This document shows, one piece after another, positions 1 through 35,076 of a stretch of 51,169 nucleotides of DNA (position 1 is the stretch's first letter; the number at the start of each line of letters is the position of its first letter). The translations under genes were made by a program, and so were the position numbers. Origin of the DNA: a virus (lineage: Duplodnaviria; Heunggongvirae; Uroviricota; Caudoviricetes); the IMG/VR virus record IMGVR_UViG_2526164628_000012. One strand, 5' to 3'. The notes beneath the pieces are model-generated. The model was not told the origin of the DNA. It did no database searches and worked only from the letters and a program-made list of their open reading frames with translations.

Positions 1-1131
1 TCAAATGACCAGTTTTTTCCATTCCTTACCGCGTGCGTCGTTGTAAATATCGGTCATTTTTTGATTCGAATGGCCTAGCAAAATTTTGGTATCAACCCCC
101 TGCTCTCTGAACAATCGCTCTGATAAAGATCTCTGCTCATGGAAAGAGGGTGGGGTGCCATTAGCACGCCAGTTGTAATCCACAGAATCCCGGGCTTTTT
201 TAAATGCAACGGTTAATGTTGCTGGCTTAACCATCCCGCCGCGCTTAGCTGTCCCTTTCGCGTGATGGTGGTGCAATAGCCACGGACTAAGAACGCAATC
301 GCGGCAGGATGACACTACATCATCCAGGGTGAGATTTAATTTATCGCAACGCAGAGCCAGAGGGATGGCAATCCGGGTTCCTGTTTTTTGCTGTTCGACA
401 TGAAGATAACCATCCCGGATATCCGAAAATTGCATTTTGCAAATATCTGAAAGGCGCTGGCCTGTCATCAGTGCCAGCAGCATACCGCGCTGTAAAAAGT
501 AACCATCCTTTTCCGCTGCGTTATAAATCATCATCCACTCATCAAAAGTCAGTCGCTGTCTTGATATCCGCACCTGCGGTTTTTTTGCCGATTCTGCAGG
601 GTTAAAGCCTGGCGGGACATCGCCCGTTTGCTGAGCTTCCCGGAAAACATCGATCAGTACCTTCCTGAAAATTTGTCCCATTCTGTTATGTCCTCTGGCC
701 TTGTACTCTTCCAGTACTGATACCACATCTTTTACGGTTATGGCATCTAACGGTCTGGTGCCAAAACGTTCATCAAATACCCTGAGAGGGGCCGCTTTCT
801 GTTTCAGCGTGTTGAGTTTGATCTCGCCGTTTTCATATCTTTCCTGTTGAATTTTTCTGTAATTATTCAGAAAAATGGTAACGGTTGATGAACCGCCGGT
901 ATCACTAATAATTTTCTCCTGCAGACTGAGCATTTGTTCCATTTGCTGCCGGGCAAGACGGCTGTTCGCTTCTGCTGCAATAGTTTCTGCCAGTTTCTGG
1001 TCAATACTGCCGAGACCGTGATTTTTGCCTGTTATGGGATGCCTGTAACGCCAGTAAACTTTGTTATTTCTTTTGTCAAAATACGGAGATAATCCCGGAA
1101 CATTGGTTTTATATTTTCGCGGGCGCGCCAT
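1..1131 (-). CDS. int: Phage integrase (tyrosine recombinase), 376 aa
   Basis: Full ORF with stop at 1-3; lambdoid-integrase-like N-terminus (MARPRKYKT...); sits at prophage end with xis overlapping its 5' end. Confidence 0.85.
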   Translation of the reverse strand: MARPRKYKTNVPGLSPYFDKRNNKVYWRYRHPITGKNHGLGSIDQKLAETIAAEANSRLARQQMEQMLSLQEKIISDTGGSSTVTIFLNNYRKIQQERYENGEIKLNTLKQKAAPLRVFDERFGTRPLDAITVKDVVSVLEEYKARGHNRMGQIFRKVLIDVFREAQQTGDVPPGFNPAESAKKPQVRISRQRLTFDEWMMIYNAAEKDGYFLQRGMLLALMTGQRLSDICKMQFSDIRDGYLHVEQQKTGTRIAIPLALRCDKLNLTLDDVVSSCRDCVLSPWLLHHHHAKGTAKRGGMVKPATLTVAFKKARDSVDYNWRANGTPPSFHEQRSLSERLFREQGVDTKILLGHSNQKMTDIYNDARGKEWKKLVI

Positions 1132-1357
1132 CTTCCAGTATCCTCTTCAAAGCAGGGTGATCTGTGGCGATCACCTCCGGCTTGTTTACCATTCCGACAA
1201 AGCGAGCTTGCGGATCCACTCGCCAGCGTCTTCCAACTTTTTTGGGGAGAGGAAATATCATTCCGGCTTTAGCGTATTTACTTAACGTACTCGGAGTTGG
1301 GACCGGTTCACTGAATTCCTCTTTTGCCCACTCAGTGAGCAGAATAAGTCTTGCCAT
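1109..1357 (-). CDS. xis: Excisionase-like protein, 82 aa
   Basis: Small basic ORF immediately upstream of and overlapping int start; position and size typical of Xis. Confidence 0.6.
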   Translation of the reverse strand: MARLILLTEWAKEEFSEPVPTPSTLSKYAKAGMIFPLPKKVGRRWRVDPQARFVGMVNKPEVIATDHPALKRILEDGAPAKI

Positions 1358-1421: not shown

Positions 1422-3893
1422 TTAAAAATCAGCCTGATTCGGGATCAGTTTTTGCCAGATAACTGAAACGTATTTTGCCTGGTAACGGGCGTCATCAAGT
1501 GCATTATGGCGCTCACCTTCGAATGGAATAGCCGTTCTGGCATCGAAGTCTATGGCTTTCCCCAGCTCAACGATTGTGCGTACATCGCGATCGTTGTAGT
1601 AACGCCACGGGCAGGGGATCCCCTGCCGTTCGTATGAACGGCGCAAAATCGTGTTGTCGAAGTTGGCTCCATTTCCCCAGACCTGAACAAAAAATTCACC
1701 GGAGTTTTCGTCGATAAATTCCCGCAATTGTAACAGTGCATCATCTAACGGGATTTCATCGGTCATAATGGCAGACTGCGCTTCACGTGATTGCTTCAGC
1801 CACCTTTTAATGACGTCACGATCAATGACTCCGCCAGCAGTTTCCAGATCGATAGTCTTACTAAATTCCGGTCCCATATCTCCGGTTTGCGGATCGAAAA
1901 ATATTGCACCTATTGAGATAATCGGGGCATCAGGATTTTTTCCCATGGTTTCAAGGTCGATCATTAGATGGTCACACGTCCTGCTGGTGGATGTGATAAC
2001 GTGATGACCGTTCATCGCAATTAAGGGATCTGCCGTCTCGCCAGTTTCACTATCGCTGGCGTGATCCTGAGCGCTACCAGCATTCTCCTTGTGTGGATGT
2101 TCAGCGCCTTCGATTTCCTTCGGATCATTTTCCTGAACTTCAACCTGATTCTCTTCATCGAATGTTTCCTGGTATGTTGCGTCACCCATCACCGCGCCAC
2201 AATCAGGGCAGTTGCCGCCACCGCTTTGACCGCAGGCGGTGCAGACTTTTTCCGGTTCCTGTTGCGCTACTGGCTCAGGTTGTTTCGTTTCTGGCTCGTT
2301 TTGTTGCGTATTTGGGCTGTTTTGTTCCGCTTTCTGGTCGTTCTGTTCCGATTCTTGCTGGTTCTGGTTTACAGAATCGCGGGTTTCAATCCCCTTTACC
2401 CATTTCGGATCATTCGGGTCGCTAATCCCTGCAACAAATTCTCCGCGAGAGGCAGCAAGCAACTTATCGGCGTCAGGCTGGCTGATATTGGCTGCCTGCA
2501 TAATTTTGTTTACTTCGTCAGCGGTAACTTTTACCGGCTCTGGTTGTGCGGTCGTGTCAGATGCACCAGTATTTTGTTGTGAACCTGAGTACGTGCCGTT
2601 TTTACGTGCGAAGTATTCCTCTTTTGTGATTTCCGTAGCTCCCAGGGCTAGTGCTTTTTCCAGACCAGAAAGTTTGTTTGCGCGACCGTATTTTTCGCCA
2701 TCCTTGTCGGTGAAGAGGAAGTAGAACGGCCCCTCACGCTCTACAGATGGTTCGACTTCCACTTTGCATTCGGTTTTTTCGTTGCCCGGAATTGCCGTTT
2801 CCACTGCATCAGTTTCTGGTACTGGCGACGAGAGAGTATCAGTTGCGCTCTGATTTCTTCCTTCATCTTCAAACACGCCCTTTGTAGTCAGGTATTCAGT
2901 AATGTATTTGTTCAGTGCCACAGGGTCTTTGTGAATGTCGATCGGACGTTCACGGACAAGGCCAAAAATAGTCTGGCGGTCGTAGCGAAGGGCATCAGGC
3001 TGTTTGCGCATTGATGCCGAGATACGCTTCCAGTCTTCGCGGTCGTTGTCGATAACTTCATTTTTTGCCCAGCGATGGATGCTGCCGTCAATGTTTCCGG
3101 CATCCACATCACCAGGCCAGAGAGCGTAGGCCAGTTCGTCATCCAGTGTTTTCCATGTCTGCTTGTATTCGCGATGAATGGCAGCAATGACCGGGCTGAT
3201 TTTTCCTGTTGAATTTTCACTGTGCTGTTGATTGGTTCTGGCGCGGGCGAGATCAACAACAGACGTGTATTTTCCGGTTTCCTTGCGTTCACCTTCGCGA
3301 CGTTTTTTCCAGATGCGCATCTCTGCCTGAATTTCGGGCCATTTGGCACCAGGCTTACATTTATGCTTAACCCACCCGATGGCATGCAGCTTAAGCTCCG
3401 GATACATGGCGTTAACTTCTGGCATTTTCATCAACGCTTCAACGATATGTCCGTCGAATGTTGCCATGTCTTCCTGCAACAATTCCTGTGCGCTAATAAC
3501 CATATCAACGGTGATGTTTTCACATGTGTCGAACTTAACCATGACAGCGTTCTGTACTTCAGGGGCCAGCTTGTCAAAAGTGACGTTCATCGGATCGGAT
3601 TCAGTCTCAACCGGGACAAAGGAAGCAGACTCCTCATCCCAGCGGTTTTCCTGCATATATTCAGCATCCCAGGAATCGAGGGCAGGGCGGGGTATACCGG
3701 GTTTATCCTCGCAGACAAGAAATTTATAAGCGCAGTCCTGAGCAGCCGGATAATGTTCCAGGAATTGCCAGTGAAATTTTGCGCGGGCGCGACGTTCATC
3801 ACCGGCTTCAATGGCAGTGGCTACAGCGACGGCACCTTCTTCCTTTATTGCCTGTTCGTCCGGAATGGCGGCGCAAATAAAGACTTTACTCAT
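1422..3893 (-). CDS. Exodeoxyribonuclease VIII-like protein, 823 aa, C-terminal DnaQ/DEDDh-type exonuclease domain
   Basis: Long ORF; C-terminal region (MIDLETMG...HNALDDARY) looks like a DEDD 3'-5' exonuclease; central Gln-rich low-complexity stretch and CxxC...CxxC motif; position between xis and dicB as in Qin/Rac-type prophages. Confidence 0.7.
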   Translation of the reverse strand: MSKVFICAAIPDEQAIKEEGAVAVATAIEAGDERRARAKFHWQFLEHYPAAQDCAYKFLVCEDKPGIPRPALDSWDAEYMQENRWDEESASFVPVETESDPMNVTFDKLAPEVQNAVMVKFDTCENITVDMVISAQELLQEDMATFDGHIVEALMKMPEVNAMYPELKLHAIGWVKHKCKPGAKWPEIQAEMRIWKKRREGERKETGKYTSVVDLARARTNQQHSENSTGKISPVIAAIHREYKQTWKTLDDELAYALWPGDVDAGNIDGSIHRWAKNEVIDNDREDWKRISASMRKQPDALRYDRQTIFGLVRERPIDIHKDPVALNKYITEYLTTKGVFEDEGRNQSATDTLSSPVPETDAVETAIPGNEKTECKVEVEPSVEREGPFYFLFTDKDGEKYGRANKLSGLEKALALGATEITKEEYFARKNGTYSGSQQNTGASDTTAQPEPVKVTADEVNKIMQAANISQPDADKLLAASRGEFVAGISDPNDPKWVKGIETRDSVNQNQQESEQNDQKAEQNSPNTQQNEPETKQPEPVAQQEPEKVCTACGQSGGGNCPDCGAVMGDATYQETFDEENQVEVQENDPKEIEGAEHPHKENAGSAQDHASDSETGETADPLIAMNGHHVITSTSRTCDHLMIDLETMGKNPDAPIISIGAIFFDPQTGDMGPEFSKTIDLETAGGVIDRDVIKRWLKQSREAQSAIMTDEIPLDDALLQLREFIDENSGEFFVQVWGNGANFDNTILRRSYERQGIPCPWRYYNDRDVRTIVELGKAIDFDARTAIPFEGERHNALDDARYQAKYVSVIWQKLIPNQADF

Positions 3894-3985: not shown

Positions 3986-4177
3986 TTAAAGACCTGCCGG
4001 GATTTCGTTATTATCCTGGTGAATAACTTTATCGACCGGGTAACAGTTACCGGGAATTTTCTGTTCGGTTGCTGCAGTCACACACTCCTGCATTGTCCTG
4101 TGAACACTGACTGCAATATCAACTGGCTCTCCGGAAACAAGAAAAACTGTCAGAACAAGTGCAAATGCTGTATTCAT
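3986..4177 (-). CDS. ydfD: YdfD-like small membrane (lysis) protein, 63 aa
   Basis: ATG overlaps dicB stop (ATGA); N-terminal hydrophobic segment MNTAFALVLTVFLVSG; matches recalled Qin YdfD size and sequence. Confidence 0.55.
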   Translation of the reverse strand: MNTAFALVLTVFLVSGEPVDIAVSVHRTMQECVTAATEQKIPGNCYPVDKVIHQDNNEIPAGL

Positions 4178-4362
4178 TGCCAGCATCCTTTTTGTATCGG
4201 ACGTAAACGGGCCAGCATTGAAAGAATGCATATTTTATTTAATAGCTCCCGTTCGTGTTTTCTCTTGTTAATGGCATCTTCAGTAAATACAGGGTTACTG
4301 ATAGTGACACCAATTTCAAAACAACCTTCAGACGTATTAACGTTTGGTAATAACGTTTCCAT
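4174..4362 (-). CDS. dicB: Cell-division inhibitor DicB, 62 aa
   Basis: Internal Met of the 97-aa track ORF gives METLLPNVNTSEGCFEIGVTISNPVFTEDAINKRK..., near-identical to recalled DicB; immediately downstream of DicF. Confidence 0.85.
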   Translation of the reverse strand: METLLPNVNTSEGCFEIGVTISNPVFTEDAINKRKHERELLNKICILSMLARLRPIQKGCWQ

Positions 4363-4536: not shown

Positions 4537-4589
4537 GGGCGGCAGAGCAGTCACGGAGTAAAACTGATACCGCCAAACGTCACCAGAAA
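4537..4589 (-). ncRNA. dicF: DicF small regulatory RNA (ftsZ-targeting)
   Basis: Reverse complement reads TTTCTGGTGACGTTTGGCGGTATCAGTTTTACTCCGTGACTGCTCTGCCGCCC followed by a T-run, matching recalled DicF; located directly upstream of dicB. Confidence 0.85.
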
Positions 4590-4921: not shown

Positions 4922-5200
4922 ATGGATAAAAAGCAAATTGAGGCCCTGCAATCTATTATTGAAAAACAAGATGAAGCTATCAGGATTCTTTCATATCGCA
5001 CTGATATGATACTAAATATGCTTTCTGCATTAACGGCTGCGCTTGGTGGTACAAAAACAAACGTATACCGCGAAGTTGTTATTCAACAGATAGATAAATT
5101 TGAAAAAACCATACCAGGTATTAATGCTCATCTTGCAGAACAAGAGAAAGACCATGCTCTTATGGCAATTTCTTCAGTAGCTCTCCCGAAAGTTGAGTAG
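4922..5200 (+). CDS. Hypothetical protein, 92 aa, AT-rich gene convergent with the dicB operon
   Basis: ATG at 4922 preceded by AGGAGGGTGAA; about 37% GC versus about 55% in flanking DNA; 3' end overlaps the convergent minus-strand ORF by about 40 bp. Confidence 0.45.
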   Translation: MDKKQIEALQSIIEKQDEAIRILSYRTDMILNMLSALTAALGGTKTNVYREVVIQQIDKFEKTIPGINAHLAEQEKDHALMAISSVALPKVE

Positions 5201-5573
5201 TTTTAATTGTTGTTTTGAAATAATCACTGCTTTCACATTTGAGTGATTTCATGGCAATCCAAATGCGGGCCTCTGTGCCTGCATTTGGTTCCAGTTGCTG
5301 TAGACGTTTTGCGTCTTCCAAAAGTAAGGCGATAATGTGTTTCAGCTTCTCATCATTTGCTTGATTCTTGTTTTCAGGCGAATTCTGTCCGCCGAATAGG
5401 CGCTTCTCTTCATACAGACCTATAAAGGCACGACGCACGTTACCGGATATAGTATCGATGGTTTCTTTTTCTACGGTACTCAGGTCAAGAGTCGCCAGTT
5501 GAGAGCGAACCACATTCGATGCCATTTCCTGGAATGGTACTGGTAAATCTTTAAATTCCATCGTCAACCTCAT
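5160..5573 (-). CDS. Hypothetical protein, 133-137 aa
   Basis: Start ATG overlaps ydfA-like stop (TGATG coupling); alternative start 5561 with GAGG RBS; no recognisable motifs. Confidence 0.5.
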   Translation of the reverse strand: MRLTMEFKDLPVPFQEMASNVVRSQLATLDLSTVEKETIDTISGNVRRAFIGLYEEKRLFGGQNSPENKNQANDEKLKHIIALLLEDAKRLQQLEPNAGTEARIWIAMKSLKCESSDYFKTTIKTTQLSGELLKKLP

Positions 5574-5725
5574 CAGTCAGTGTTTCTGGTTAACCAGCGA
5601 CGCGCGCCAGCTTCAGTTTTAAACGTTTTGCTTCTGGTATACGTCATCGCGGTAAACGTGCCGTCCTGGTTGGGGAACACGCCACATACCAGAGATTCGT
5701 TGTTGCCAAGATTGAGCATATCCAT
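5573..5725 (-). CDS. ydfA: YdfA-like small protein, 50 aa
   Basis: Hand translation of minus strand: MDMLNLGNNESLVCGVFPNQDGTFTAMTYTRSKTFKTEAGARRWLTRNTD; GAGG RBS 5 nt upstream; not in supplied ORF track (below 60 aa); resembles recalled Qin YdfA. Confidence 0.5.
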   Translation of the reverse strand: MDMLNLGNNESLVCGVFPNQDGTFTAMTYTRSKTFKTEAGARRWLTRNTD

Positions 5726-5797
5726 GTTGACCTCATTTCCCCTTAACGCCGGGGTAGCGGAACAAAAGTAAGCGGCTCGTCAGAACCGTATTGATAT

Positions 5798-7369
5798 TTA
5801 CTGAGAGCTCAGATCAACTTTCCAGGGCAACAGATCGCGTACCCGGTTTGCCGGCCAGTCCTGGATATGTTCAATGACGTAGCGCAGCCACTTTTCTGGC
5901 TCCACATTGTTCAGACGGCATGTGCCGATCAGCGAGTACAACACCGCCGCATGTTCACCACCGCTGTCGGAACCCGCGAACATCCAGTTTTTCCGGCCTA
6001 CGGCCACTCCCCGTAAGGCGTTCTCTGCGATGTTGTTGTCGATTTCCACCCAGCCATTACTGCAGTACACGTTCAGTGCATCCCACTGTTTCAGCAGGTA
6101 TGCGAACGCTTTTGCCGTATCTGAGTGACGCGACAGTGTTTTCATCTGTTGCTGTATCCAGTCATACAGTGACTGCATCAGTGGCGCGGCTCTGGTTTTT
6201 CTTGCCGCCAGACGCTGTTCTGCTGAACAGCCCCGGACCTCTGCCTCGATGGCATACAGTTCACCGATACGCTGCAGGGCTTCCGTGGTGATGTCGGTGG
6301 GCGCTCTTGCATGCACATCGTGGATTTTTCTCCGGGCATGAGCCATACACGCGGCTTCCGTTATTCTGCCGGATTCGTATAACGCCCGGTAACCACCGTA
6401 AGCATCGGCCTGAAGCACACCGCTGTAACCGGCCAGGTGATTTTGTGGATGGATACCTTTCCGGTCCGGACTGTACGCGAACCAGACCGCCGGGGGCATC
6501 TGTGAACCGGCGTTACGGTCATCACGGACGTAGACCCACAGCCGGGCTGTCCGGGTTTTACCGCTGCCCGGCTCCTGGACCGGGACGGGGATATCATCAG
6601 CATGGACTTTACCGGGCATCAGCACATACTGGCGCAGGACGTCATACAGCGGCTCCAGTAGTTCAGCAACGGCACCTGTCCAGCGCCCCAGTGTGGCACG
6701 GCTCAGCTCCACACCCTGACGGCGGTATATCTCTGACTGGCGGTATAACGGCAGATGGTCTGCATATTTTCCGGTGACGACATGGGCCAGGAGCCCCGCT
6801 CCGGCATAACTGCGTGCAATGGGTTTTGAAGGTACTGGTGCCTGCACGATATGGTCGCACCGACAACAGGCCAGTTTCGGACGTTGTGTTTCGATAACCT
6901 TAAAGGCGCTGCTGATAAGCTCCAGTTGCTCTGACACATCACATCCCAGAGAACTGAGTTCACCACCACAGGCAGGACAGCATTCCTCTTCCGGCCGGAT
7001 AACCCGGGTTTCACGGGGAAGTGAGGCCGGTAACGGTTTACGGGCTGAAGACTGGCGCAGGGCGGATGGCAGTACCGGGTCATATTGCTCACCCAGCGTT
7101 TCCGCCATTTCTTCCTGAAGTGCGCTGATTCGCTCCTGTGCTTCCTGTATCTGCCGTTCGGTTTTTGCACGAAGTTTTTCTGAGCTTTTACCGAACTGCA
7201 TACGTTGCAGTTTCGCAACCAGCGCCTTCAGCCGGTTGATTTCGGAAGCATAAGCCGCCACCCGCTGTGAGAGCAGGCGGTTGTATTCAGCCATCTGGCG
7301 TATGGTGTCCTGTTGCGTCTGCAACAGTGCCCGCAGGCGGGCGTTCTCATGAGCAAGTGAGGTGTCCAT
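5798..7369 (-). CDS. IS66-family transposase (orf3/TnpC), 523 aa
   Basis: Characteristic IS66 transposase length and arrangement; identical protein in second copy. Confidence 0.85.
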
Positions 7370-7388
7370 ATCCTCACTTTACAACGGG

Positions 7389-7736
7389 TTATATGCGGAT
7401 TCCAGCGCGTTCCGTTCGTTTCGGGTGCTTCCAGTTGATACCTTCAAGAAGCATGGATAACTGAGCCGGAGTAAGGTGCACCTTGCCGTCACGGGTGACT
7501 GGCCAGACGAAGCGGCCCCGCTCCAGGCGTTTGGTGAAGAGGCACAGTCCGTCACTGTCAGCCCACAACACTTTTATCTGGTCACCCCGGCGTCCGCGGA
7601 AGATGAACAGGTGTCCGGAGAACGGGTCATCCTTCAGGACGTTCTGAACTTTTGATGCCAGGCCGTTAAAGCCATTTCGCATATCGGTGATACCTGCAAC
7701 CAGCCAGATACGCGAACCTGCAGGGAGAGATATCAT
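7389..7736 (-). CDS. IS66-family Orf2 (TnpB), 115 aa
   Basis: Middle ORF of IS66 three-gene arrangement. Confidence 0.8.
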   Translation of the reverse strand: MISLPAGSRIWLVAGITDMRNGFNGLASKVQNVLKDDPFSGHLFIFRGRRGDQIKVLWADSDGLCLFTKRLERGRFVWPVTRDGKVHLTPAQLSMLLEGINWKHPKRTERAGIRI

Positions 7737-8413
7737 CAGTGGCTGCTCCCTTTTATTTCGCGGATAAGTGTCTGTAATAACGCCGGCGTCAGTTTACCTT
7801 TAAGCCTGAGAGTTCCGGCCGGCAGAACCAGCTCACAACACAGACTGTCGGACGGTGTATTTATCTGCTCTGGTTCCTGTGCGGGGGCCGGGATTTTATT
7901 ATCCGGCTCCGGCGTTAACGTCACGGGAAGCAGTGCCGGCATATTTTTTCCGGAAGGCAGCAGGCCACCTTTCCGGTATTGATGGCGCCAGTTGAAGAGC
8001 AGGTTATCGTTGATTCCGTTTTCCCGGGCGATCTGCGCCACACAGGCTCCGGGCTGCAGTGACTGCTCCACTAAGGCGATTTTAAACTCATAAGGGAAGT
8101 TGGGCCGCCGGGGACGTTTTTTTACCACGGGGGCTTCGGATATAACGGTGCTTTCAGGACGTACGACTGGTACCGTGGAAAATTGTCCGTAAAGGCAGGC
8201 ATCAAGTTCCTGCTCCGACATGCCTGCGGGCAAAGGCCACGAAAGGCCAGCTCTCCGAAAGCGCACGAACATACTACAAACTGTTGATTTTGGTACACCC
8301 AGGCGACGCCCGGCCACAACCCGGGGTAAATGTTCTTCAAAGTGAAGACGTAAAGCTTCAGTGATCCAGGTCCGGTGTTTCATACGATAGTGTCCATTAA
8401 AAATGATGGACAT
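7736..8413 (-). CDS. IS66-family Orf1 (TnpA), 225 aa
   Basis: First ORF of IS66 arrangement; overlaps orf2 start. Confidence 0.8.
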   Translation of the reverse strand: MSIIFNGHYRMKHRTWITEALRLHFEEHLPRVVAGRRLGVPKSTVCSMFVRFRRAGLSWPLPAGMSEQELDACLYGQFSTVPVVRPESTVISEAPVVKKRPRRPNFPYEFKIALVEQSLQPGACVAQIARENGINDNLLFNWRHQYRKGGLLPSGKNMPALLPVTLTPEPDNKIPAPAQEPEQINTPSDSLCCELVLPAGTLRLKGKLTPALLQTLIREIKGSSH

Positions 8414-8618
8414 TATTTTTGTAGAGCCGGAGGAAACAGACCAGACGGTTTAAATGAGCCGGTTACGAACAAAAACCTGCTGCATAGTTATTAAAGTTGA
8501 ACCCTGCCGTCATGTTCTTACGCCTCGGGCTGGCTACTTAACCCCTGACCACTGCCTGGTAACTCGAAGTATTGCCCTGCATTCTGTGGGGCGGGGGGGG
8601 TTGGTATGAAAAGAAGGA

Positions 8619-8655
8619 TACCCATAGGTATTTAAAAAGTAAATACCCATGGGTA
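8619..8655. promoter_or_regulatory. Two palindromic operator-like sites TACCCATAGGTA and TACCCATGGGTA
   Basis: Two 12-bp TACC-N4-GGTA palindromes about 25 bp apart, downstream of the repressor gene and upstream (before IS insertion) of ydfA-DicF-dicB. Confidence 0.4.
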
Positions 8656-8697
8656 AATTTTTGCGGTGTCTTAACTGGTGACTAGTTGTTTGGTGAG

Positions 8698-9116
8698 CTA
8701 TGATGCGTTTTGTGCTTTCTTTTTACGGATTTCTTCGTAGATCATATTGTAATACTGTTTTTTCTCTTCAAGAGTTTTTAATAATTTATCCGCTTCACTT
8801 TCTGGCAGTTCGTCTAAGAGATCTAAAAAAATACGTTGTCGTGGCGTTAGAACCCTTGTTTCATAACTGGAGGCTGTGTTCGTTGATGATGAAACGATAC
8901 CATCCATCCATCCCCGGGGTAACCCAAAGGACTCTTCGATAATCTCCACCATATCATCAGCGATCCGTTTTTTCCCTTTTTCCCCTCTGGGTACAACATT
9001 CTTGATACATAAGAAGGCTCGCGCCCGATCTTTCTGGCCACGTTAACCGCTTTACCATCGCATTTCTCATCACGAATTTTGATGAGTTGCTGTCGTCTAA
9101 ATTCATATTTGTCCAT
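8698..9116 (-). pseudogene. DicA/CI-like HTH repressor, frameshifted
   Basis: Two overlapping ORFs (8847-9116 and 8698-8952) form one repressor-like protein if one base is added to the A6 run in GGGAAAAAAC (plus-strand T6 near 8967-8972); C-terminus resembles DicA. Confidence 0.55.
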
Positions 9117-9136
9117 AGGTAAATAATAGATGCGAT

Positions 9137-9187
9137 TACCGCAAGGTAAACAACCTGTGGGTATTGACTTTTGTTTACCTGTGGGTA
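9137..9187. promoter_or_regulatory. Divergent promoter/operator region with three TACC-N4-GGTA-type sites
   Basis: TACCGCAAGGTA (9137-9148), AACCTGTGGGTA (9152-9163), TACCTGTGGGTA (9176-9187) between divergent repressor and cro-like genes. Confidence 0.45.
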
Positions 9188-9216
9188 TTCTTTGCTGTGT
9201 TTACTAAGGAGTAGCT

Positions 9217-9498
9217 ATGGAAGAATTAAGAATATTTCTCAATTCTCTTTCGTCAGATGAACAGCGTATGTTTGCATGCGAGTGTGGTACCAGCATCGGT
9301 TATCTAAGAAAGGCATTGAGTAAAGGTCAAGTGTTAGGGGCATCGTTATGTGTCCTTATTGAGCGAGCCAGTAATGGTGAAGTTACACGTCAGCAACTAA
9401 GGCCTTTTGATTGGATGAATATTTGGCCCGAGCTGGAAGATACCAAAACGTTAACACAACCACTTTCTAGGAGCTTGATTCATGAAAATCAAGCATGA
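9217..9498 (+). CDS. Cro/DicC/YdaS-like HTH regulator, 93 aa
   Basis: Divergent from repressor; motif pattern resembles DicC/YdaS family. Confidence 0.6.
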   Translation: MEELRIFLNSLSSDEQRMFACECGTSIGYLRKALSKGQVLGASLCVLIERASNGEVTRQQLRPFDWMNIWPELEDTKTLTQPLSRSLIHENQA

Positions 9499-9907
9499 AC
9501 ACATCCGCATGGCGATGAATGTCTGGGCGCATCCGGACGGCGAAAAAGTGCCGGCTGCGAAAATTACCAAAGCGTATTTCGAGCTGGGAATGACGTTCCC
9601 GGAACTGTATGACGACAGCCATCCGGAAGCCCTGGCCCGTAATACCCAGAAAATTTTCCGTTGGCTGGATAAAGACACCCCTGATGCTGTTGAAAAAATG
9701 CAGGCTCTGTTACCGGCGATCGAAAAGGCGATGCCGCCTTTGCTGGTGGCCCGTATGCGTAGCCACAGTTCTGAATATTACCGTGATATCGTCGAACGGA
9801 GGGATCGGCTGGTGAAGGATGTCGATGATTTTGTTGCGTCAGCGGTTGTTTTGTATGACCAGATGAATCGCGGCGGCCCGGCAGGGAATGCTGTGGTGAT
9901 GCACTAA
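9482..9907 (+). CDS. YdaT-like protein (CII-analogue position), 141 aa
   Basis: N-terminus MKIKHEHI and C-terminal VVMH resemble recalled Rac YdaT; follows the cro-like gene as in Rac. Confidence 0.55.
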   Translation: MKIKHEHIRMAMNVWAHPDGEKVPAAKITKAYFELGMTFPELYDDSHPEALARNTQKIFRWLDKDTPDAVEKMQALLPAIEKAMPPLLVARMRSHSSEYYRDIVERRDRLVKDVDDFVASAVVLYDQMNRGGPAGNAVVMH

Positions 9908-9914
9908 AAGCACG

Positions 9915-10892
9915 GTGTTCGGGGGTTTTATGAGCAGCAAGCTTCATGGTCTTGTCTGGGAAGGGTGCGCCTTCACCGGCATGATCTTATCCAGGGTGGC
10001 GGTTATGGCCCGTCTTGCAGACTACAGCAATGACGAGGGCGTGTCATGGCCTGCCATTGAAACTATCCGGCGTCAGATCGGTGCAAGAAGTGAATCCACA
10101 GTGAAATCGGCTATTGCAGAACTGGCGAAAGAGGGCTGGCTGACGAAGGAAGAGCGTAAGGTCGGTGGGCGTAATGTAAGCAATATCTATCGGCTTAATG
10201 TGGAAAAACTCGAAGCAGCTGCGGCGGCGGCGCGTGAGTCATATAAACCGAAAAGAAAAATTAGCCCGGCAAAAAATGACCCGTTAACAGTTGACCCGTC
10301 AAATATTGACCCCTCAACGGTTGACCCGTCAAATTTTGATGGATCAACTGTTGATAAAAAACTGCCGATTAGGGGGCCGATGATTGACCCCGATCCGTCA
10401 GTATTAAAACCTGATCCGTCAGATAAAAGATCTTCTTGTCCGGACGCTTCGCAACCGGACCCGCAGACGGCTGAACAGGATTTTTTAACCCGACACCCTG
10501 ACGCGGTTGTGTTCAGTGCGAAAAAACGCCAGTGGGGAAGTCAGGAAGATTTGGTGTGCGCACAGTGGATCTGGGGACGAATCGTGAGTCTTTACGAGCA
10601 GGCGGCCAGCTATGATGGCGAGATCACTAGACCGAAAGAACCCAACTGGACAGCATGGGCCAATGACGTTCGCACAATGCGGATGCTGGATGGCAGAACT
10701 CACAGACAAATTTGTGAAATGTTTGGGCGTCTCCAGCGGGATTCGTTCTGGGTAAAAAACATCATGAGTCCGGCAAAACTCCGGGAAAAATGGGATGAAC
10801 TGGTTATCCGCCTGGGGCGTTCGCCTGCGCAGCGTTGCGTGAATCACATTTCTGAACCGGACACTGAAATTCCGCCGGGCTTCAGGGGGTAA
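9915..10892 (+). CDS. Replication initiator (O-like) with embedded origin iterons
   Basis: Winged-helix-like N-terminus; internal 15-bp iterons encode VDPSN peptide repeats; probable true start ATG 9930. Confidence 0.6.
   Translation: MFGGFMSSKLHGLVWEGCAFTGMILSRVAVMARLADYSNDEGVSWPAIETIRRQIGARSESTVKSAIAELAKEGWLTKEERKVGGRNVSNIYRLNVEKLEAAAAAARESYKPKRKISPAKNDPLTVDPSNIDPSTVDPSNFDGSTVDKKLPIRGPMIDPDPSVLKPDPSDKRSSCPDASQPDPQTAEQDFLTRHPDAVVFSAKKRQWGSQEDLVCAQWIWGRIVSLYEQAASYDGEITRPKEPNWTAWANDVRTMRMLDGRTHRQICEMFGRLQRDSFWVKNIMSPAKLREKWDELVIRLGRSPAQRCVNHISEPDTEIPPGFRG
10277..10425 (+). repeat. Origin-like iterons: TGACCCNTNAAC repeated at 15-bp spacing plus additional GATCCGTCAG repeats
   Basis: Direct repeats at 10277, 10292, 10307, 10322 (and degenerate 10337), further repeats 10383-10421, inside the initiator gene as in lambda O/ori. 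Confidence 0.5.
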
Positions 10893-14046: not shown

Positions 14047-14257
14047 AAACGGTTTGCGGGAAAAGGAGAGTTAAGTAGAATTGCAGCGGGTGCTTGAGGC
14101 TATCTGTCTCAGGCATGAACACCAAAAGGCAGATAGAGAAAAGCCCCAGTTAACATTACGCGTCCGGCAAGACGCTTAACATTAATCTGAGGCCATATCT
14201 ATGCTCTACACACGTAGGTTAGCCTCTTACGTGCCGAAAGGCAAGGAGAAGCAGGCT

Positions 14258-14413
14258 ATGAAGCAGCAAAAGGCGATGCTAATCGCCCTGATCGTCATCT
14301 GTTTAACCGTCATTGTGACGGCACTGGTAACGAGGAAAGACCTCTGCGAGGTACGAATCCGAACCGGCCAGACGGAGGTCGCTGTCTTCACAGCTTACGA
14401 ACCTGAGGAGTAA
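14258..14413 (+). CDS. hok: Hok/Gef-family type I toxin, 51 aa
   Basis: MKQQKAMLIALIVICLTVIVTALVTRKDLCEVRIRTGQTEVAVFTAYEPEE matches the Hok family (HokD/RelF-like); terminator follows. Confidence 0.8.
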   Translation: MKQQKAMLIALIVICLTVIVTALVTRKDLCEVRIRTGQTEVAVFTAYEPEE

Positions 14414-16287: not shown

Positions 16288-16830
16288 ATGATATATCCGG
16301 AAATTACAGGCAAAAGCGGCGAGCATTTACGTCTAAAAACGCTGGAAGCCGTCTGGATCCAGGGGAAATTACGGATGTGGGGGCGTTGGTCGTATATAGG
16401 TGGTGGCAAACCAGGAAATATGTTCAATCAGTTGCTGGCATCCAAAAAACTGACAAAAACCGCGGTCAATGAAGCCCTGCGTAGAATCAGGGAGTCAGGG
16501 ATTGATAAACCAGAGCTGGAAGCATTCTTGCGAGAGATGATCGCTGGCAGACAGAAGAGCTGGTTGTCTCACTGTACTGATGCAGAGGCGTTACGCATTG
16601 ATGGGGTGATAAGTAAAGCGCTTGCACGTTATCCTGGATTGATTGATATCCTGCGGCAAAGGTACGAAGGGCGGGGGATGAGTAAACGCAAAATGGCTGA
16701 ATTGTTGAATGAGGTTCACCCTGAGTGGTGCTATGCAACATGCCGCAATCGTATAGATATGTGGCTGAGAATAGCTGAGTTTATTCTGTATCCACTGATG
16801 CGAGATGCATTTTCTTTTACTGACGCTTAG
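16288..16830 (+). CDS. Putative late-gene antiterminator (Q-like), about 180 aa
   Basis: Position after rusA and before a strong terminator, tRNAs and lysis genes; MWGRWS motif resembles phage 21/933W-type Q; track start GTG 16276 possible. Confidence 0.45.
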   Translation: MIYPEITGKSGEHLRLKTLEAVWIQGKLRMWGRWSYIGGGKPGNMFNQLLASKKLTKTAVNEALRRIRESGIDKPELEAFLREMIAGRQKSWLSHCTDAEALRIDGVISKALARYPGLIDILRQRYEGRGMSKRKMAELLNEVHPEWCYATCRNRIDMWLRIAEFILYPLMRDAFSFTDA

Positions 16831-17340: not shown

Positions 17341-18131
17341 AGGCTTTTTAATTTGTGGTAATGGGCGGCTGGTGGGTGTTAGCGGCACCTGCCAGCCATC
17401 TGCTCATGCGTTGGGGTCACAAGCAAACCTCAGGCCCATCTGCTTTGCGCAAAAGCGGTATGAGCCTATCAGAGAAGTGCTTATTGATCTATGATTAATA
17501 CTGTAAAAATATCCAGTTGTGAGTTAATCAACGCTGATTGCCTGGAGTTTATCCAGACCTTACCGGAAAACTCTGTCGATCTGATAGTCACAGACCCGCC
17601 ATACTTTAAAGTGAAGCCCGAGGGCTGGGATAACCAGTGGGAGGGCGACGATGATTACCTGAAATGGCTGGACCAGTGTCTGGCGCAGTTCTGGCGGGTA
17701 CTGAAGCCTGCCGGAAGTCTTTACCTGTTCTGTGGTCATCGCCTGGCATCTGACACCGAAATCATGATGCGTGAGCGCTTTAATGTGCTGAACCACATTA
17801 TCTGGGCGAAGCCGTCCGGACGCTGGAACGGGTGCAATAAGGAAAGTCTGCGGGCGTATTTTCCGGCAACAGAGCGCATTCTGTTTGCAGAACATTATCA
17901 GGGACCGTATCGCCCGAAAGATGATGGCTATGTGGAGCAGGGGCGCGAGCTAAAACAGCACGTCATGGCCCCGCTGATTTCTTACTTTCGTGATGCGCGT
18001 AAATCACTGGGAATAACGTCAAAACAGATAGCGGAAGCCACCGGAAAGAAAAACATGGCTTCGCACTGGTTTGGTGCTGAACCGCCCCGGGAATCCTGGA
18101 GACTAAACTCCCTGAGAAAGAGGTAAACAGG

Positions 18132-18458
18132 ATGACTAAAAATACTCGTTTTTCCCCCGAAGTCCGTCAGAGGGCGATTCGTATGGTTCTGGAAAGTCAG
18201 GGCGAATATGACTCACAGTGGGCGGCAATTTGTTCCATTGCCCCAAAGATTGACTGTACACCGGAGACTCTGCGTGTCTGGGTACGCCAGCATGAGCGGG
18301 ATACCGGAGGCGGTGATGGCGGGCTCACCACCGCTGAACGTCAGCGTCTGAAAGAGCTGGAACGTGAAAATCGTGAACTGCGCCGCAGTAACGATATCCT
18401 TCGCCAGGCTTCCGCTTATTTTGCGAAGGCGGAGTTCGACCGCCTCTGGAAAAAGTGA
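18132..18458 (+). CDS. IS3-family transposase OrfA, 108 aa
   Basis: HTH/leucine-zipper OrfA typical of IS3 family; recalled as IS629 OrfA. Confidence 0.8.
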
Positions 18459-19345
18459 TGCCACTGCTGGATAAGCTGCGTAAGCTGTACGGGGTCGGAC
18501 CGGTATGCAGTGAACTACATATTGCCCCGTCAACGTATTACCACTGTCAGCAACAGCGACATCATCCTGATAAACGCAGTGCCCGTGCGCAGCGCGATGA
18601 CTGGCTGAAGAAAGAGATACTGCGCGTATACGATGGGAATCATCAGGTATACGGTGTGCGTAAAGTCTGGCGTCAGTTGTTACGGGAAGGAATCAGGGTA
18701 GCCAGATGTACAGTGGCGCGCCTCATGGCGGTTATGGGACTTGCCGGTGTTCTCCGGGGTAAAAAGGTCCGCACTACCGTCAGCCGGAAAGCCGTTGCCG
18801 CAGGCGACCGCGTAAACCGTCAGTTTGTGGCAGAACGTCCTGACCAGTTGTGGGTGGCTGATTTTACTTACGTCAGCACATGGCAGGGGGTCGTCTATGT
18901 GGCGTTCATCATTGATGTGTTTGCCGGATACATCGTGGGGTGGCGGGTCTCATCGTCTATGGAAACGACATTCGTGCTGGATGCTCTGGAGCAGGCGTTA
19001 TGGGCCCGTCGACCGTCCGGCACAGTCCATCACAGTGATAAAGGTTCTCAGTATGTATCGCTGGCCTACACACAGCGGCTTAAGGAAGCCGGATTACTGG
19101 CATCAACAGGAAGTACTGGTGACTCGTATGACAACGCGATGGCGGAGAGCATCAATGGCCTTTACAAAGCGGAGGTAATACACCGTAAGAGCTGGAAAAA
19201 CCGGACAGAAGTGGAACTGGCCACACTCACGTGGGTGGACTGGTATAACAATCGACGATTGCTGGAAAGGCTGGGCCATATCCCACCGGCAGAAGCAGAA
19301 AAAGCTTATTATGCTTCCATCGGAAACGATGATCTGGCAGCCTGA
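18455..19345 (+). CDS. IS3-family transposase OrfB (DDE), 296 aa
   Basis: DDE integrase-like catalytic ORF overlapping orfA. Confidence 0.8.
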
Positions 19346-19903
19346 GTTCACAGATAAAACACTCTCCAGGAAACCCGGGGCGGTTCAGTGCCAGTCAGTG
19401 GCAGTTACCGAACGAGGGTGATTACAATAAATTGCAGGCGTTGTTTGCGCGTGTTGCGGCAGAAAAACATCAGCGCGGGGAACTGGAAAAGCCACACCAC
19501 CAGCTGGTCAGCACATACAGTGAGCTGAACCGGCAGTATACGGAACTGCTGAGTGAATATAAAAATTTGCGGCGGTATTTCGGTGTGACGGCGCAGGTTC
19601 CGTACACCGATGTCTGGACGCATAAACCGGTGCAGTACTATCCAGGGAAACATCCGTGCGAAAAACCGGCAGAAATGCTGCAGCAGATAATCAACGCGAG
19701 CAGTCGTCCGGGAGACCTGGTTGCAGATTTTTTTATGGGTTCAGGTTCAACGGTAAAAGCGGCGATGGCACTGGGGCGTTGTGCGATTGGTGTTGAGCTG
19801 GAGACCGGACGTTTTGAACAGACAGTCAGGGAAGTTCAGGATTTAATCGTTTGAAACGGATGAGATTGCAGAATTAATTACGCACCATTATTATTCTGCT
19901 CCC

Positions 19904-20989: not shown

Positions 20990-21382
20990 ATGTCTGAACC
21001 CTTATCCGGTTCCGGCACGGCTGCGGCGCTGGGTGGCGCGACGGTATTCGGGCTGTTTACCGGGATGGATTTCGGGATTGTGTTTGGCGCGTTCGCCGGG
21101 GCGTTATTTGTGGCAACGATGCCGCAGTCACTTTCAGTCTGGCGCGTGGTGGCACATTTTCTGGTGTCGTTTATTGTCGGCGTGCTGGGAGCGCGTGTGC
21201 TGTCAGCCTGGATTGCATCAAAAACAGGGTATGACGGTACATCAGCAGATGCGCTTTGCGCGGTGCTGGTCTCGGTGGTGTCGGTGAAGATTCTCTCGTT
21301 CATCCACCAGCAGGATATTGCATCGCTGGTGTCCGGTGTGTTCTCCCGCCTGCGGGGTGGAGGAGGCGGCAATGTTAAGTAA
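20990..21382 (+). CDS. Putative holin, 130 aa
   Basis: Multi-TM Gly-rich membrane protein at start of lysis cassette; strong RBS GGAGGAAG. Confidence 0.5.
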   Translation: MSEPLSGSGTAAALGGATVFGLFTGMDFGIVFGAFAGALFVATMPQSLSVWRVVAHFLVSFIVGVLGARVLSAWIASKTGYDGTSADALCAVLVSVVSVKILSFIHQQDIASLVSGVFSRLRGGGGGNVK

Positions 21383-21647
21383 CCTTCCCGAATTGCTGAA
21401 TGTGGCGTTATGCATGGTTATCGTGCTGACGCTCTTTTTTTATCGTCGCCGTGATTCCAGACATAAACCGCTGGTGTCATGGCTGGCCTGGCTGCTGATG
21501 CTGCTGTATGCCTTTGCGCCCCTCAGCTATCTGTGTGGTCGCCCGTTAGCAACGGGCTGGCTGGAAGTGTTTTTTAATCTGCTGTTCTGCGTGCTGGTGA
21601 TACGCGCACGCGGGAACGTCACAAAAATCTTTCCATTGTTGAGGTGA
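21372..21647 (+). CDS. Second lysis-cassette membrane protein (holin/antiholin-like), 91 aa
   Basis: Three hydrophobic segments; RBS AGGAGG; overlaps holin stop and endolysin start. Confidence 0.45.
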   Translation: MLSNLPELLNVALCMVIVLTLFFYRRRDSRHKPLVSWLAWLLMLLYAFAPLSYLCGRPLATGWLEVFFNLLFCVLVIRARGNVTKIFPLLR

Positions 21648-22027
21648 ATATGCCGGGTAAATTCAGATTCAGCCGTCGCAGTGAAAAAAATCTGGAGGGT
21701 GTCAAACCACAGCTGGTTGCTGTAGTTCGCCGTGCGCTGGAGCTGACGGAGGTTGATTTCGGTATTACGGAAGGCCTGCGCAGTAAGTATCGCCAGAAAC
21801 AGCTGGTTGCGGAAGGGAAAAGCCAGACCATGAACAGCCGCCACCTGACCGGTGATGCGGTGGATGTTGTGGCCTACATTGGCAGTCAGGTGTCATGGGA
21901 GTGGCCTCTGTACGAGAAAATCGCACAGGCATTTAAGCAGGCTGCCGCAGAGCTGGGGATCGCTATCGAATGGGGCGGGGACTGGAAAACGCTGAAAGAC
22001 GGACCTCACTTTCAGCTGAAGCGATAA
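21644..22027 (+). CDS. Endolysin, peptidase M15 family (L-alanyl-D-glutamate peptidase-like), 127 aa
   Basis: Resembles T5-type M15 endolysin (VKPQLVAVVRRALEL...HLTGDAVDV...GGDW). Confidence 0.75.
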   Translation: MNMPGKFRFSRRSEKNLEGVKPQLVAVVRRALELTEVDFGITEGLRSKYRQKQLVAEGKSQTMNSRHLTGDAVDVVAYIGSQVSWEWPLYEKIAQAFKQAAAELGIAIEWGGDWKTLKDGPHFQLKR

Positions 22028-31970: not shown

Positions 31971-32162
31971 AACATACTGAATTCCGTGCAGCCGTACTGG
32001 ATGCACTGGAGAAGCATGACACCGGGGCGACGTTTTTTGATGGTCGCCCCGCTGTTTTTGATGAGGCGGATTTTCCGGCAGTTGCCGTTTATCTCACCGG
32101 CGCTGAATACACGGGCGAAGAGCTGGACAGCGGTAAGCGGCTCGTCAGAACCGTATTGATAT

Positions 32163-33734
32163 TTACTGAGAGCTCAGATCAACTTTCCAGGGCAACAGAT
32201 CGCGTACCCGGTTTGCCGGCCAGTCCTGGATATGTTCAATGACGTAGCGCAGCCACTTTTCTGGCTCCACATTGTTCAGACGGCATGTGCCGATCAGCGA
32301 GTACAACACCGCCGCATGTTCACCACCGCTGTCGGAACCCGCGAACATCCAGTTTTTCCGGCCTACGGCCACTCCCCGTAAGGCGTTCTCTGCGATGTTG
32401 TTGTCGATTTCCACCCAGCCATTACTGCAGTACACGTTCAGTGCATCCCACTGTTTCAGCAGGTATGCGAACGCTTTTGCCGTATCTGAGTGACGCGACA
32501 GTGTTTTCATCTGTTGCTGTATCCAGTCATACAGTGACTGCATCAGTGGCGCGGCTCGGGTTTTTCTTGCCGCCAGACGCTGTTCTGCTGAACAGCCCCG
32601 GACCTCTGCCTCGATGGCATACAGTTCACCGATACGCTGCAGGGCTTCCGTGGTGATGTCGGTGGGCGCTCTTGCATGCACATCGTGGATTTTTCTCCGG
32701 GCATGAGCCATACACGCGGCTTCCGTTATTCTGCCGGATTCGTATAACGCCCGGTAACCACCGTAAGCATCGGCCTGAAGCACACCGCTGTAACCGGCCA
32801 GGTGATTTTGTGGATGGATACCTTTCCGGTCCGGACTGTACGCGAACCAGACCGCCGGGGGCATCTGTGAACCGGCGTTACGGTCATCACGGACGTAGAC
32901 CCACAGCCGGGCTGTCCGGGTTTTACCGCTGCCCGGCTCCTGGACCGGGACGGGGATATCATCAGCATGGACTTTACCGGGCATCAGCACATACTGGCGC
33001 AGGACGTCATACAGCGGCTCCAGTAGTTCAGCAACGGCACCTGTCCAGCGCCCCAGTGTGGCACGGCTCAGCTCCACACCCTGACGGCGGTATATCTCTG
33101 ACTGGCGGTATAACGGCAGATGGTCTGCATATTTTCCGGTGACGACATGGGCCAGGAGCCCCGCTCCGGCATAACTGCGTGCAATGGGTTTTGAAGGTAC
33201 TGGTGCCTGCACGATATGGTCGCACCGACAACAGGCCAGTTTCGGACGTTGTGTTTCGATAACCTTAAAGGCGCTGCTGATAAGCTCCAGTTGCTCTGAC
33301 ACATCACATCCCAGAGAACTGAGTTCACCACCACAGGCAGGACAGCATTCCTCTTCCGGCCGGATAACCCGGGTTTCACGGGGAAGTGAGGCCGGTAACG
33401 GTTTACGGGCTGAAGACTGGCGCAGGGCGGATGGCAGTACCGGGTCATATTGCTCACCCAGCGTTTCCGCCATTTCTTCCTGAAGTGCGCTGATTCGCTC
33501 CTGTGCTTCCTGTATCTGCCGTTCGGTTTTTGCACGAAGTTTTTCTGAGCTTTTACCGAACTGCATACGTTGCAGTTTCGCAACCAGCGCCTTCAGCCGG
33601 TTGATTTCGGAAGCATAAGCCGCCACCCGCTGTGAGAGCAGGCGGTTGTATTCAGCCATCTGGCGTATGGTGTCCTGTTGCGTCTGCAACAGTGCCCGCA
33701 GGCGGGCGTTCTCATGAGCAAGTGAGGTGTCCAT
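32163..33734 (-). CDS. IS66-family transposase (orf3/TnpC), 523 aa
   Basis: Identical protein to copy 1. Confidence 0.85.
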
Positions 33735-33753
33735 ATCCTCACTTTACAACGGG

Positions 33754-34778: not shown

Positions 34779-35076
34779 TATTTTTGTAGAGCCGGAGGAA
34801 ACAGACCAGACGGTTTAAATGAGCCGGTTACGGACAGCGATACCTGGCAGGCGGAGCTGCATATCGAAGTTTTCCTGCCTGCTCAGGTGCCGGATTCAGA
34901 GCTGGATGCGTGGATGGAGTCCCGGATTTATCCGGTGATGAGCGATATCCCGGCACTGTCAGATTTGATCACCAGTATGGTGGCCAGCGGCTATGACTAC
35001 CGGCGCGACGATGATGCGGGCCTGTGGAGTTCAGCCGATCTGACTTATGTCATTACCTATGAAATGTGAGGACGCT

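Follow-up and report, generated by a model that had tools for sequence, protein, structure and literature searches.

An ISCro1 insertion in the early-left operon leader and a putative repressor frameshift in an ompW prophage of enterotoxigenic Escherichia coli

The window, by which we mean the whole analysed stretch of 51,169 nucleotides, carries a lambdoid prophage of roughly 48 kb that is a mosaic of Rac and Qin types, resides at ompW and belongs to an enterotoxigenic E. coli lineage. In length it is almost complete; int, xis, a Q-like gene, the lysis genes and most virion genes are intact, and the region considered here is its immunity and early-left (PL) region. The gene order of the early-left operon is ydfA, two genes of unknown function, DicF, dicB, ydfD, exo, xis and int. 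The first gene, ydfA-like (5573..5725, minus strand), encodes a DUF1391 protein (Pfam, E=1.4e-28) with 84% identity to K-12 YdfA. It is followed by a gene of 133–137 aa (5160..5573, minus strand; phrog_1363, E=1.1e-44, no Pfam match), which stands where K-12 has ydfB and ydfC, and by a 92-aa gene on the plus strand (4922..5200; phrog_18692, E=5.9e-63; hypothetical in the annotation of strain TW10590), which is convergent with the operon and extends into the former gene's 3' end. The remaining genes are all on the minus strand: the small RNA DicF (4537..4588; Rfam RF00039, 76.7 bits against a gathering score of 48), identical to K-12 dicF; the intact, 62-aa cell-division inhibitor gene dicB (4174..4362; Pfam DicB, E=1.7e-37), with 89% identity to K-12 DicB; a ydfD-like gene (3986..4177; Pfam DUF1482, E=3.7e-25); an intact RecE-like exonuclease gene of 823 aa (1422..3893); the excisionase gene (1109..1357; open reading frame and TW10590 annotation); and, as the last gene of the unit, an intact integrase gene of 376 aa (1..1131; phage integrase in the TW10590 annotation).

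With a DUF1391 gene upstream of the DicF RNA and DicB on one strand, the unit is a dicBF operon, and the ydfA, DicF and dicB that the earlier note read from the letters are all present by their Pfam (DUF1391, DicB) and Rfam (DicF) matches. The arrangement resembles the dicA-dicC/dicBF region of the K-12 prophage Qin, where a repressor at the CI position likewise precedes, in the same orientation, a PL-type operon that begins with ydfA and carries DicF, dicB and ydfD, with a divergent cro-like gene opposite. In contrast to Qin, the window prophage is nearly full length, has a leader of the Rac rather than the Qin type with ISCro1 in it, and lacks ydfB and ydfC between ydfA and dicF, the phrog_1363 gene and the convergent phrog_18692 gene being found in their place. 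The relatives F8704-2 and ETEC1703 do carry ydfB and ydfC.

The leader of this operon is interrupted by an IS66-family element of 2699 bp (5768..8466, minus strand), which shows 100% full-length identity to RefSeq copies annotated as ISCro1 and no difference from the ISCro1 reference, with tnpA, tnpB and tnpC, an 8-bp target duplication and imperfect repeats beginning GTAAGCG. The three genes, so named by RefSeq in identical copies, are intact open reading frames on the minus strand (tnpC, 5798-7369; tnpB, 7389-7736; tnpA, 7736-8413) and point in the direction of the operon. The terminal inverted repeats, GTAAGCGGCTCG... and GTAACCGGCTCA..., match at 19 of their first 26 positions, and the target-site duplication GAACAAAA is found at 5760-5767 and 8467-8474. 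Alignment with uninterrupted relatives, together with the junctions, delimits a ydfA-proximal leader part (5726..5767, minus strand) that holds the left copy of the duplication and a promoter-proximal part (8467..8608, minus strand) that holds the right one. Such an alignment had been proposed by the earlier note, and in four uninterrupted relatives it yielded the empty site, GCGGAACAAAAACCTG, where GAACAAAA occurs once; the ends, the duplication and the empty site thus confirm the 2699-bp IS66-family insertion which that note had described. The insertion point lies in the 5' leader, 35 nt upstream of the ydfA start codon and about 132 nt downstream of the predicted start of transcription from a two-operator, PL-type promoter.

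The nearest complete genome, that of the ETEC strain TW10590 (NZ_CP035850.1), contains the same ompW prophage with ISCro1 at the same site, which indicates that the insertion was inherited. The ISCro1 copy is a standard one, and a publicly available complete genome already contains and annotates its insertion. The window has three insertion sequences in this prophage, the other two being an IS629-like element (18078-19387) and a second ISCro1 (32133-34831) that differs from the first copy by 1 nt and is flanked by the duplication GGACAGCG. TW10590 lacks both of these and has an ISEc62 in the O-like gene that the window lacks; the sister strain thereby carries a different second insertion sequence.

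The leader module interrupted here is conserved in about half of E. coli genomes, an uninterrupted leader being the norm and occurring in 2693 of 5426, and past the left promoter it is 87% identical to the racR-ydaG leader of K-12 Rac. An evenly spaced sample of 4175 matching leader records contained mosaic variants of the Rac and Qin types only, with no split matches of the kind that recurrent insertion into the same leader would leave. ISCro1 also lies beside exo and xis in many genomes; these cases trace to a separate insertion into the integrase gene of a related prophage. A search for an RNA split by the element, using Rfam at permissive thresholds, returned DicF and a sub-threshold STnc100 match only, and the fold of the uninterrupted leader is no more stable than those of shuffled sequences (z=+1.1).

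On the far side of the element from the ydfA start are the two operator-like sites that the earlier note had placed at 8619-8655, namely TACCCATAGGTA at 8619-8630 and TACCCATGGGTA at 8644-8655. Both overlie a putative PL-type promoter (8613..8655, minus strand) with a -35 hexamer TTTACT (8641-8636), a 17-nt spacer and a -10 hexamer TATCCT (8618-8613); the hexamers were read by eye and score 8 of 12, under the scan threshold, and the promoter position is one that we infer. Elsewhere in the 51 kb, TACCNNNNGGTA is matched exactly at just two places, 9137-9148 and 9176-9187, in the repressor-cro intergenic region, which means that all four exact sites flank the repressor gene. A further site with one mismatch lies at 9152-9163, giving three operators within a region of divergent promoters (9123..9191) that consists of a PRM-like promoter on the minus strand (9150-9123) and a PR-like promoter on the plus strand (9164-9191). 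The two left operators pair into a 16-bp hairpin with a U-rich tail behind it (-22.2 kcal/mol, z=-7.25), which probably also terminates the repressor mRNA. Judged from these signals, the operon would be transcribed from a putative repressor-controlled promoter upstream of ydfA.

The repressor gene occupies the CI/DicA position (8698..9116, minus strand) and would encode 139 aa if intact (phrog_5736, 'transcriptional regulator'). Left and right operator clusters with one half-site pattern, divergent promoters and cro-like and CII-like neighbours place it in the functional class of lambdoid CI-type immunity repressors. These neighbours, on the plus strand, are an intact Cro/YdaS-like regulator gene (9217..9498; phrog_35, E=4.8e-23; Pfam YdaS_toxin at 25.8 bits, under the cutoff of 30) and an intact CII/YdaT-like regulator gene (9482..9907; Pfam YdaT_toxin, 40.8 bits against a cutoff of 21; phrog_163 'CII-like'; 31% identity to K-12 YdaT); further to the right an O-like gene, a Q-like gene (16288-16830) and the holin-endolysin genes (about 20990-22027) are intact as well. 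The YdaS-like and YdaT-like pair to the right of the repressor is a feature shared with the K-12 Rac region racR-ydaS-ydaT, as are the leader and a RecE-like exonuclease in the left operon, whereas the window repressor is unrelated to RacR, dicB and DicF stand in for kilR, and the integration site is ompW. The repressor was found in 0 of 50,697 phage records, with which the leader alone is shared, and hence no isolated phage with this immunity region was encountered.

The intact form of the repressor is WP_000362153.1 in TW10590. In the window, a run of seven T is reduced to T6 at 8968-8973, corresponding to the loss of one base in an A7 run of the gene, and the frame is lost after residue 49 of 139, leaving open reading frames of 89 aa (8847-9116) and 84 aa (8698-8952). 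The frameshifted DicA/CI-like repressor of the earlier note accordingly holds as to the T6 run and the CI position, but not as to a general likeness to DicA: BLASTP aligns only residues 89-134 with DicA 84-129 (33% identity). Homology does not extend across the DNA-binding domain, and since the likeness covers the C-terminal ~46 residues only, the DNA-binding part and the operators differ from those of Qin. Furthermore, the repressor contains no Pfam domain and has no relative of solved structure below E=0.07.

How the insertion and the frameshift relate to one another can be judged first from TW10590. Over about 47 kb of shared non-IS sequence, which is 99.97-100% identical, the window differs from TW10590 by 9 substitutions and a single indel, the repressor frameshift; that this lone indel should fall in the 420-bp repressor gene would be a coincidence if the change were random. 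TW10590 has the intact repressor (T7, 139 aa). Since the insertion sequence is common to both strains and the frameshift is private to the window, the insertion sequence came first. The element therefore did not arise to compensate for the loss of the repressor, as the earlier note had suggested, given that TW10590 keeps it beside an intact repressor. The order as read from these two genomes would fit a weaker, permissive version of that proposal, in which ISCro1 cut DicF and dicB off from PL and removed their toxicity, so that a later repressor frameshift survived. The premise that DicA restrains dicBF is sound, because in K-12 dicA is essential (PMC11481867), its deletion was studied in a strain that also lacks the dicBF operon, which avoids growth inhibition, and dicBp was shown experimentally to be the sole promoter of that operon (PMC10448788).

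Nevertheless, we consider the permissive version unlikely. The repressor also controls PR, and with the Cro/YdaS-like, YdaT-like, O-like, Q-like antiterminator and lysis genes of that side intact, silencing dicB alone would not be enough to tolerate its loss; in Rac, ydaS and ydaT by themselves make repressor loss lethal (PMC5700377, PMC5700373). In addition, the T6 allele occurs without the insertion sequence, and with ydfA and dicB intact, in the genomes of ETEC1703 and MLI104K2, which detaches the frameshift from an uncoupled operon. The element is moreover co-directional with the operon and poor in terminator-like structure, as described below, and the frameshift is itself only putative, lying in a 7-base homopolymer. 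Loss of an N-like antiterminator was considered as another reason for tolerance and was dropped, no N-like gene being found in the left operon, where the matches of YdfA and the 133-aa protein are all to families without an assigned function.

The homopolymer setting raises the question of whether the frameshift is a residual one-base assembly error, with the repressor intact and the insertion alone real. This we regard as a serious candidate that falls just short of being the probable one. The indel is the only one relative to TW10590 in about 47 kb and sits in a 7-base run; among complete genomes with this repressor, T7 is found in 820 of 822 and the shortened allele in the two mentioned above (2/822); and loss of repressor function should kill the cell, because PR, the Q-like gene and the lysis genes are all intact. 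Furthermore, in two other T6 sequences, those of MLI104K2 and a Logan contig, the second A7 run of the repressor gene is shortened as well, which looks like homopolymer sequencing error. Against this, ETEC1703 has T6 without any other indel in the gene, one indel per 9 substitutions is normal for real divergence, and while the window has about 18 homopolymer runs of at least seven bases, all others of that length shared with TW10590 agree, which shows that errors are not common across the assembly. The 89-aa frameshift product is present on one contig, compared with at least 1000 contigs for the intact protein. Its exact look-up was rejected as a proof of inheritance, the match being one 2-kb Logan contig with the empty site and several other homopolymer indels, and hence unreliable. 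Contigs with the 84-aa C-terminal reading frame were likewise discarded as a proxy for a broken gene, as O145 RM12761 and others have an intact T7 run in which annotators chose an internal start.

The effect of the insertion on the operon depends on transcription across the element. The only terminator-like hairpin in ISCro1 is a weak one of 6 bp at its end, and the segment folds no better than shuffled sequence (z=-0.69); no strong terminator was found between tnpC and ydfA. The earlier note had spoken of the operon as severed from its operator region, but this is unproven, since the element runs in the operon's direction and no terminator within it is convincing. Read-through from PL or from a transposase promoter is possible, and the insertion sequence thus need not shut the operon off; a strong polar block may also be its effect, and the degree of polarity imposed by the element is something we infer. 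These same features, the shared orientation and the lack of a strong terminator between tnpC and ydfA, would suit an operon made weak and repressor-independent by the co-directional element, with constitutive DicB and DicF serving, for example, in phage exclusion, and leaky dicBF expression in K-12 already reduces the plating efficiency of lambda (PMC6832061). However, no outward promoter-like site was found at the end of the element, promoter-like matches in the region are no commoner than in shuffled sequence, and the insertion is limited to one lineage, which makes this reading very improbable. More speculative still, and to be given hardly any credence, is the idea that the A7 run at codons 49-50 of this widespread repressor is a slippage-prone off-switch, recurring in lineages that are unrelated (the window, ETEC1703, MLI104K2 and one Logan sample), whose consequences ISCro1 buffers in the TW10590 lineage by damping PL-driven DicF, dicB, xis and int; the prophage would then be locked in, and a little leaky DicB and DicF would serve to exclude phages.

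The insertion and the frameshift are probably independent, ordinary decay events in an IS-rich prophage rather than a compensated pair. An ISCro1 copy entered the early-left operon in its untranslated leader and was passed on in the lineage, with the expected effect of moving the repressor-controlled promoter 2.7 kb away and imposing some polarity. The repressor frameshift would be a separate, private event, a one-base contraction of the A7 run for which recent slippage and an error left in the assembly at this homopolymer are the two possible origins.

As it stands, the locus matters little: in an IS-rich pathogen, a decaying prophage shows one more IS insertion and one more possible pseudogene. 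If the frameshift were real and the insertion sequence made it survivable, the locus would offer a natural case of stepwise prophage domestication, in which a mobile element first disarms a toxic operon and the repressor guarding it decays afterwards. This would be a tidy illustration and no new principle, as the laboratory deletion of dicA already relies on the deletion of dicBF.

The leader of the ydfA-DicF-dicB operon in the ompW prophage is interrupted by a copy of ISCro1 (IS66 family) at 5768-8466, whose three genes, tnpA (7736-8413), tnpB (7389-7736) and tnpC (5798-7369), are intact and lie on the minus strand, co-directional with the operon. The element ends in imperfect repeats (GTAAGCGGCTCG... 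and GTAACCGGCTCA...), is flanked by an 8-bp duplication (GAACAAAA, at 5760-5767 and 8467-8474) and is 100% identical to ISCro1 copies that RefSeq annotates on chromosomes and plasmids of ETEC. Four uninterrupted relatives have the empty site GCGGAACAAAAACCTG, in which the target occurs once. At 2699 bp, the element has the size given in the earlier note. In many unrelated E. coli genomes (e.g. F8704-2, locus L002 3001-5699), ISCro1 also interrupts the integrase gene of a related prophage that carries dicB, an insertion distinct from that in the leader.

Downstream of the element, the early-left operon on the minus strand consists of a ydfA-like gene (DUF1391, 5573-5725), a neighboring gene of unknown function encoding 133-137 aa (5160-5573), DicF (4537-4588; Rfam 76.7 bits, identical to K-12), dicB (4174-4362, 89% identical to K-12), a ydfD-like gene (3986-4177), a RecE-like exonuclease gene (1422-3893), xis (1109-1357) and int (1-1131). 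On the plus strand, a 92-aa gene (phrog_18692, 4922-5200) converges on this operon and shares 41 bp with the 3' end of the 133-aa gene. In place of these two genes, both of unknown function, the K-12 Qin prophage carries ydfB and ydfC. The dicF-dicB spacer (equivalent to 5129-5338 of locus L005) contains a sub-threshold Rfam match to STnc100 (34.3 bits; gathering score, 47).

Upstream of the element lie two left operators, TACCCATAGGTA (8619-8630) and TACCCATGGGTA (8644-8655). Elsewhere in the 51 kb, TACCNNNNGGTA has just two exact matches, at 9137 and 9176, and these, together with a one-mismatch site at 9152, all lie in the interval that separates the repressor gene from the divergent cro-like gene. 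Because only ~0.8 exact sites are expected from composition, this is a real arrangement of left and right operators. A promoter scan detected a PRM-like promoter (9150-9123, minus strand) and a PR-like promoter (9164-9191, plus strand). For the left promoter, PL, a by-eye reading gives a putative -35 box TTTACT (8641-8636), a 17-nt spacer and a -10 box TATCCT (8618-8613), hexamers that score 8/12 and fall under the scan threshold. This placement is backed by the conservation pattern, as sequence common to prophages of other immunity types starts at ~8608, directly downstream of the operators, and runs into ydfA. With this promoter, the leader would be interrupted after ~132 nt, with the insertion lying 35 nt upstream of the ydfA start codon (ATG). 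The paired left operators also form a perfect-looking 16-bp hairpin (8619-8655, minus strand; -22.2 kcal/mol, z=-7.25) with a U-rich tail, directly past the repressor stop codon. The hairpin probably terminates the repressor mRNA as well, and one sequence may thereby act as both operator pair and intrinsic terminator.

The leader itself (5736-5767 and 8475-8608) is a conserved module, present without interruption in 2693 of 5426 E. coli genomes and shared across different immunity types, with its mosaic boundary at the operators. Rfam gives no match for it, and its fold is not unusual. The K-12 Rac leader is 87% identical to it, whereas similarity to the K-12 Qin leader stops at GGAAC, exactly the IS target site. 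An evenly spaced sample of leader matches yielded nothing beyond mosaic variants of the Rac and Qin types. The leader insertion is not recurrent in this sampling, and among the genomes compared only the ETEC strain TW10590 shares it.

The intact repressor gene (8698-9116) encodes 139 aa. The product matches phrog_5736 ('transcriptional regulator') and is labeled 'phage repressor protein CI' by one public source; it lacks a Pfam domain and any solved relative below E=0.07. The gene is carried by 822 of the 5426 complete E. coli chromosomes and, at megablast sensitivity, by none of 50,697 phage records. It is unrelated to RacR of Rac, and its likeness to DicA is confined to the C-terminal ~46 residues (33% identity), so that the description 'DicA-like' holds for its position and C-terminal part and not elsewhere. 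The window reads T6 at 8968-8973 instead of T7, which changes the coding strand from GGA AAA AAA CGG to GGA AAA AAC GG. Native sequence is lost after residue 49, leaving an 89-aa ORF and an 84-aa ORF starting at native residue 56.

The window and the ompW prophage of TW10590 (NZ_CP035850.1) are sisters: over ~47 kb of shared sequence they differ by nine substitutions and a single indel, the T6/T7 difference in the repressor. TW10590 has ISCro1 at the same site together with an intact repressor (WP_000362153.1). Since the insertion is shared, it is ancestral to both strains, and the frameshift is private to the window sequence. Further insertions differ between the two sisters, which have been gathering different IS hits. 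The window alone has an IS629-like element (IS3 family, 1310 bp, 18078-19387; Rfam ALIL frameshift pseudoknot at 18413-18529) in a phage DNA methyltransferase gene and a second ISCro1 (32133-34831), one base different from the first and with its own duplication GGACAGCG, in a gpU-like minor tail gene. TW10590 alone has ISEc62 (IS21 family; locus L001 11928-14035, corresponding to window ~10004-10007) in the O-like replication gene, which is intact in the window (9915-10892). Rfam matches in the window also include sok antitoxin RNA at 14088-14263, adjoining hokD, and 'IS009' at 49594-49792 in the tail-fibre region.

The frameshift may be an assembly artefact caused by a homopolymer error, a reading to which we give slightly less than an even chance. 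The change is a one-base homopolymer deletion, and 820 of the 822 genomes with the repressor contradict it. It recurs in noisy assemblies: MLI104K2, one of the two complete genomes with T6, and a Logan contig have a shortened second A7 run in the gene too, a pattern indicative of homopolymer sequencing error. Furthermore, a null repressor looks incompatible with the intact PR, Q-like and lysis genes. However, the assembly is otherwise clean compared to TW10590, ETEC1703 (the other T6 genome) has no further indel in the gene, and a ratio of one indel to nine substitutions would be normal for genuine divergence.

The earlier note proposed that uncoupling of the operon from its promoter by the IS may be a compensatory event by which repressor loss becomes tolerable. 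Its premise of repressor-held dicBF toxicity is sound: in K-12 the dicA repressor is essential (PMC11481867), the dicBF transcript has dicBp as its sole promoter, and deletion of dicA was examined in a strain lacking dicBF, avoiding growth inhibition (PMC10448788). Compensation itself is contradicted by TW10590, and because this strain keeps an intact repressor alongside the IS, only a permissive version survives, in which the IS came first and the frameshift was tolerated later. The inferred order of events is the one predicted by this version, and it is a mild coincidence that the sole indel relative to TW10590 hits the repressor. Yet the window contains 17 homopolymer runs of at least seven bases (~18 with the TW10590 T7 site), making the odds not extreme if indels target runs, and T6 also occurs in MLI104K2 and ETEC1703, where the leader is uninterrupted and ydfA and dicB are intact. 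The T6 allele, if real, would thus need no IS. In addition, the repressor guards PR too, and the PR-side genes are intact (Cro/YdaS-like, CII/YdaT-like, O-like, a Q-like antiterminator at 16288-16830 and holin-endolysin). In Rac, ydaS and ydaT alone make repressor depletion lethal (PMC5700377; PMC5700373; bioRxiv 10.64898/2026.09.06.749655). Silencing of dicB would not render a null repressor harmless in this prophage. The best reading is that insertion and frameshift, artefact or not, are ordinary events with no link to each other, in a prophage gaining IS hits. The components are all known and annotated in a public genome, and IS disruption and pseudogenisation of resident prophages are familiar phenomena.

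ISCro1 puts the putative repressor-controlled promoter 2.7 kb from ydfA. To say that it severs the operon is too strong, because read-through from PL or the transposase promoter may occur: on the operon strand, a single terminator-like feature is present, a weak hairpin of 6 bp at the end of the IS, and the fold of its segment shows no gain over shuffled sequence (z=-0.69). Upon induction, expression of DicF, dicB, ydfD, exo, xis and int would probably be lowered and not necessarily abolished. Since xis and int are in the same transcription unit as dicB, the insertion may matter for prophage anchoring as much as for division control.
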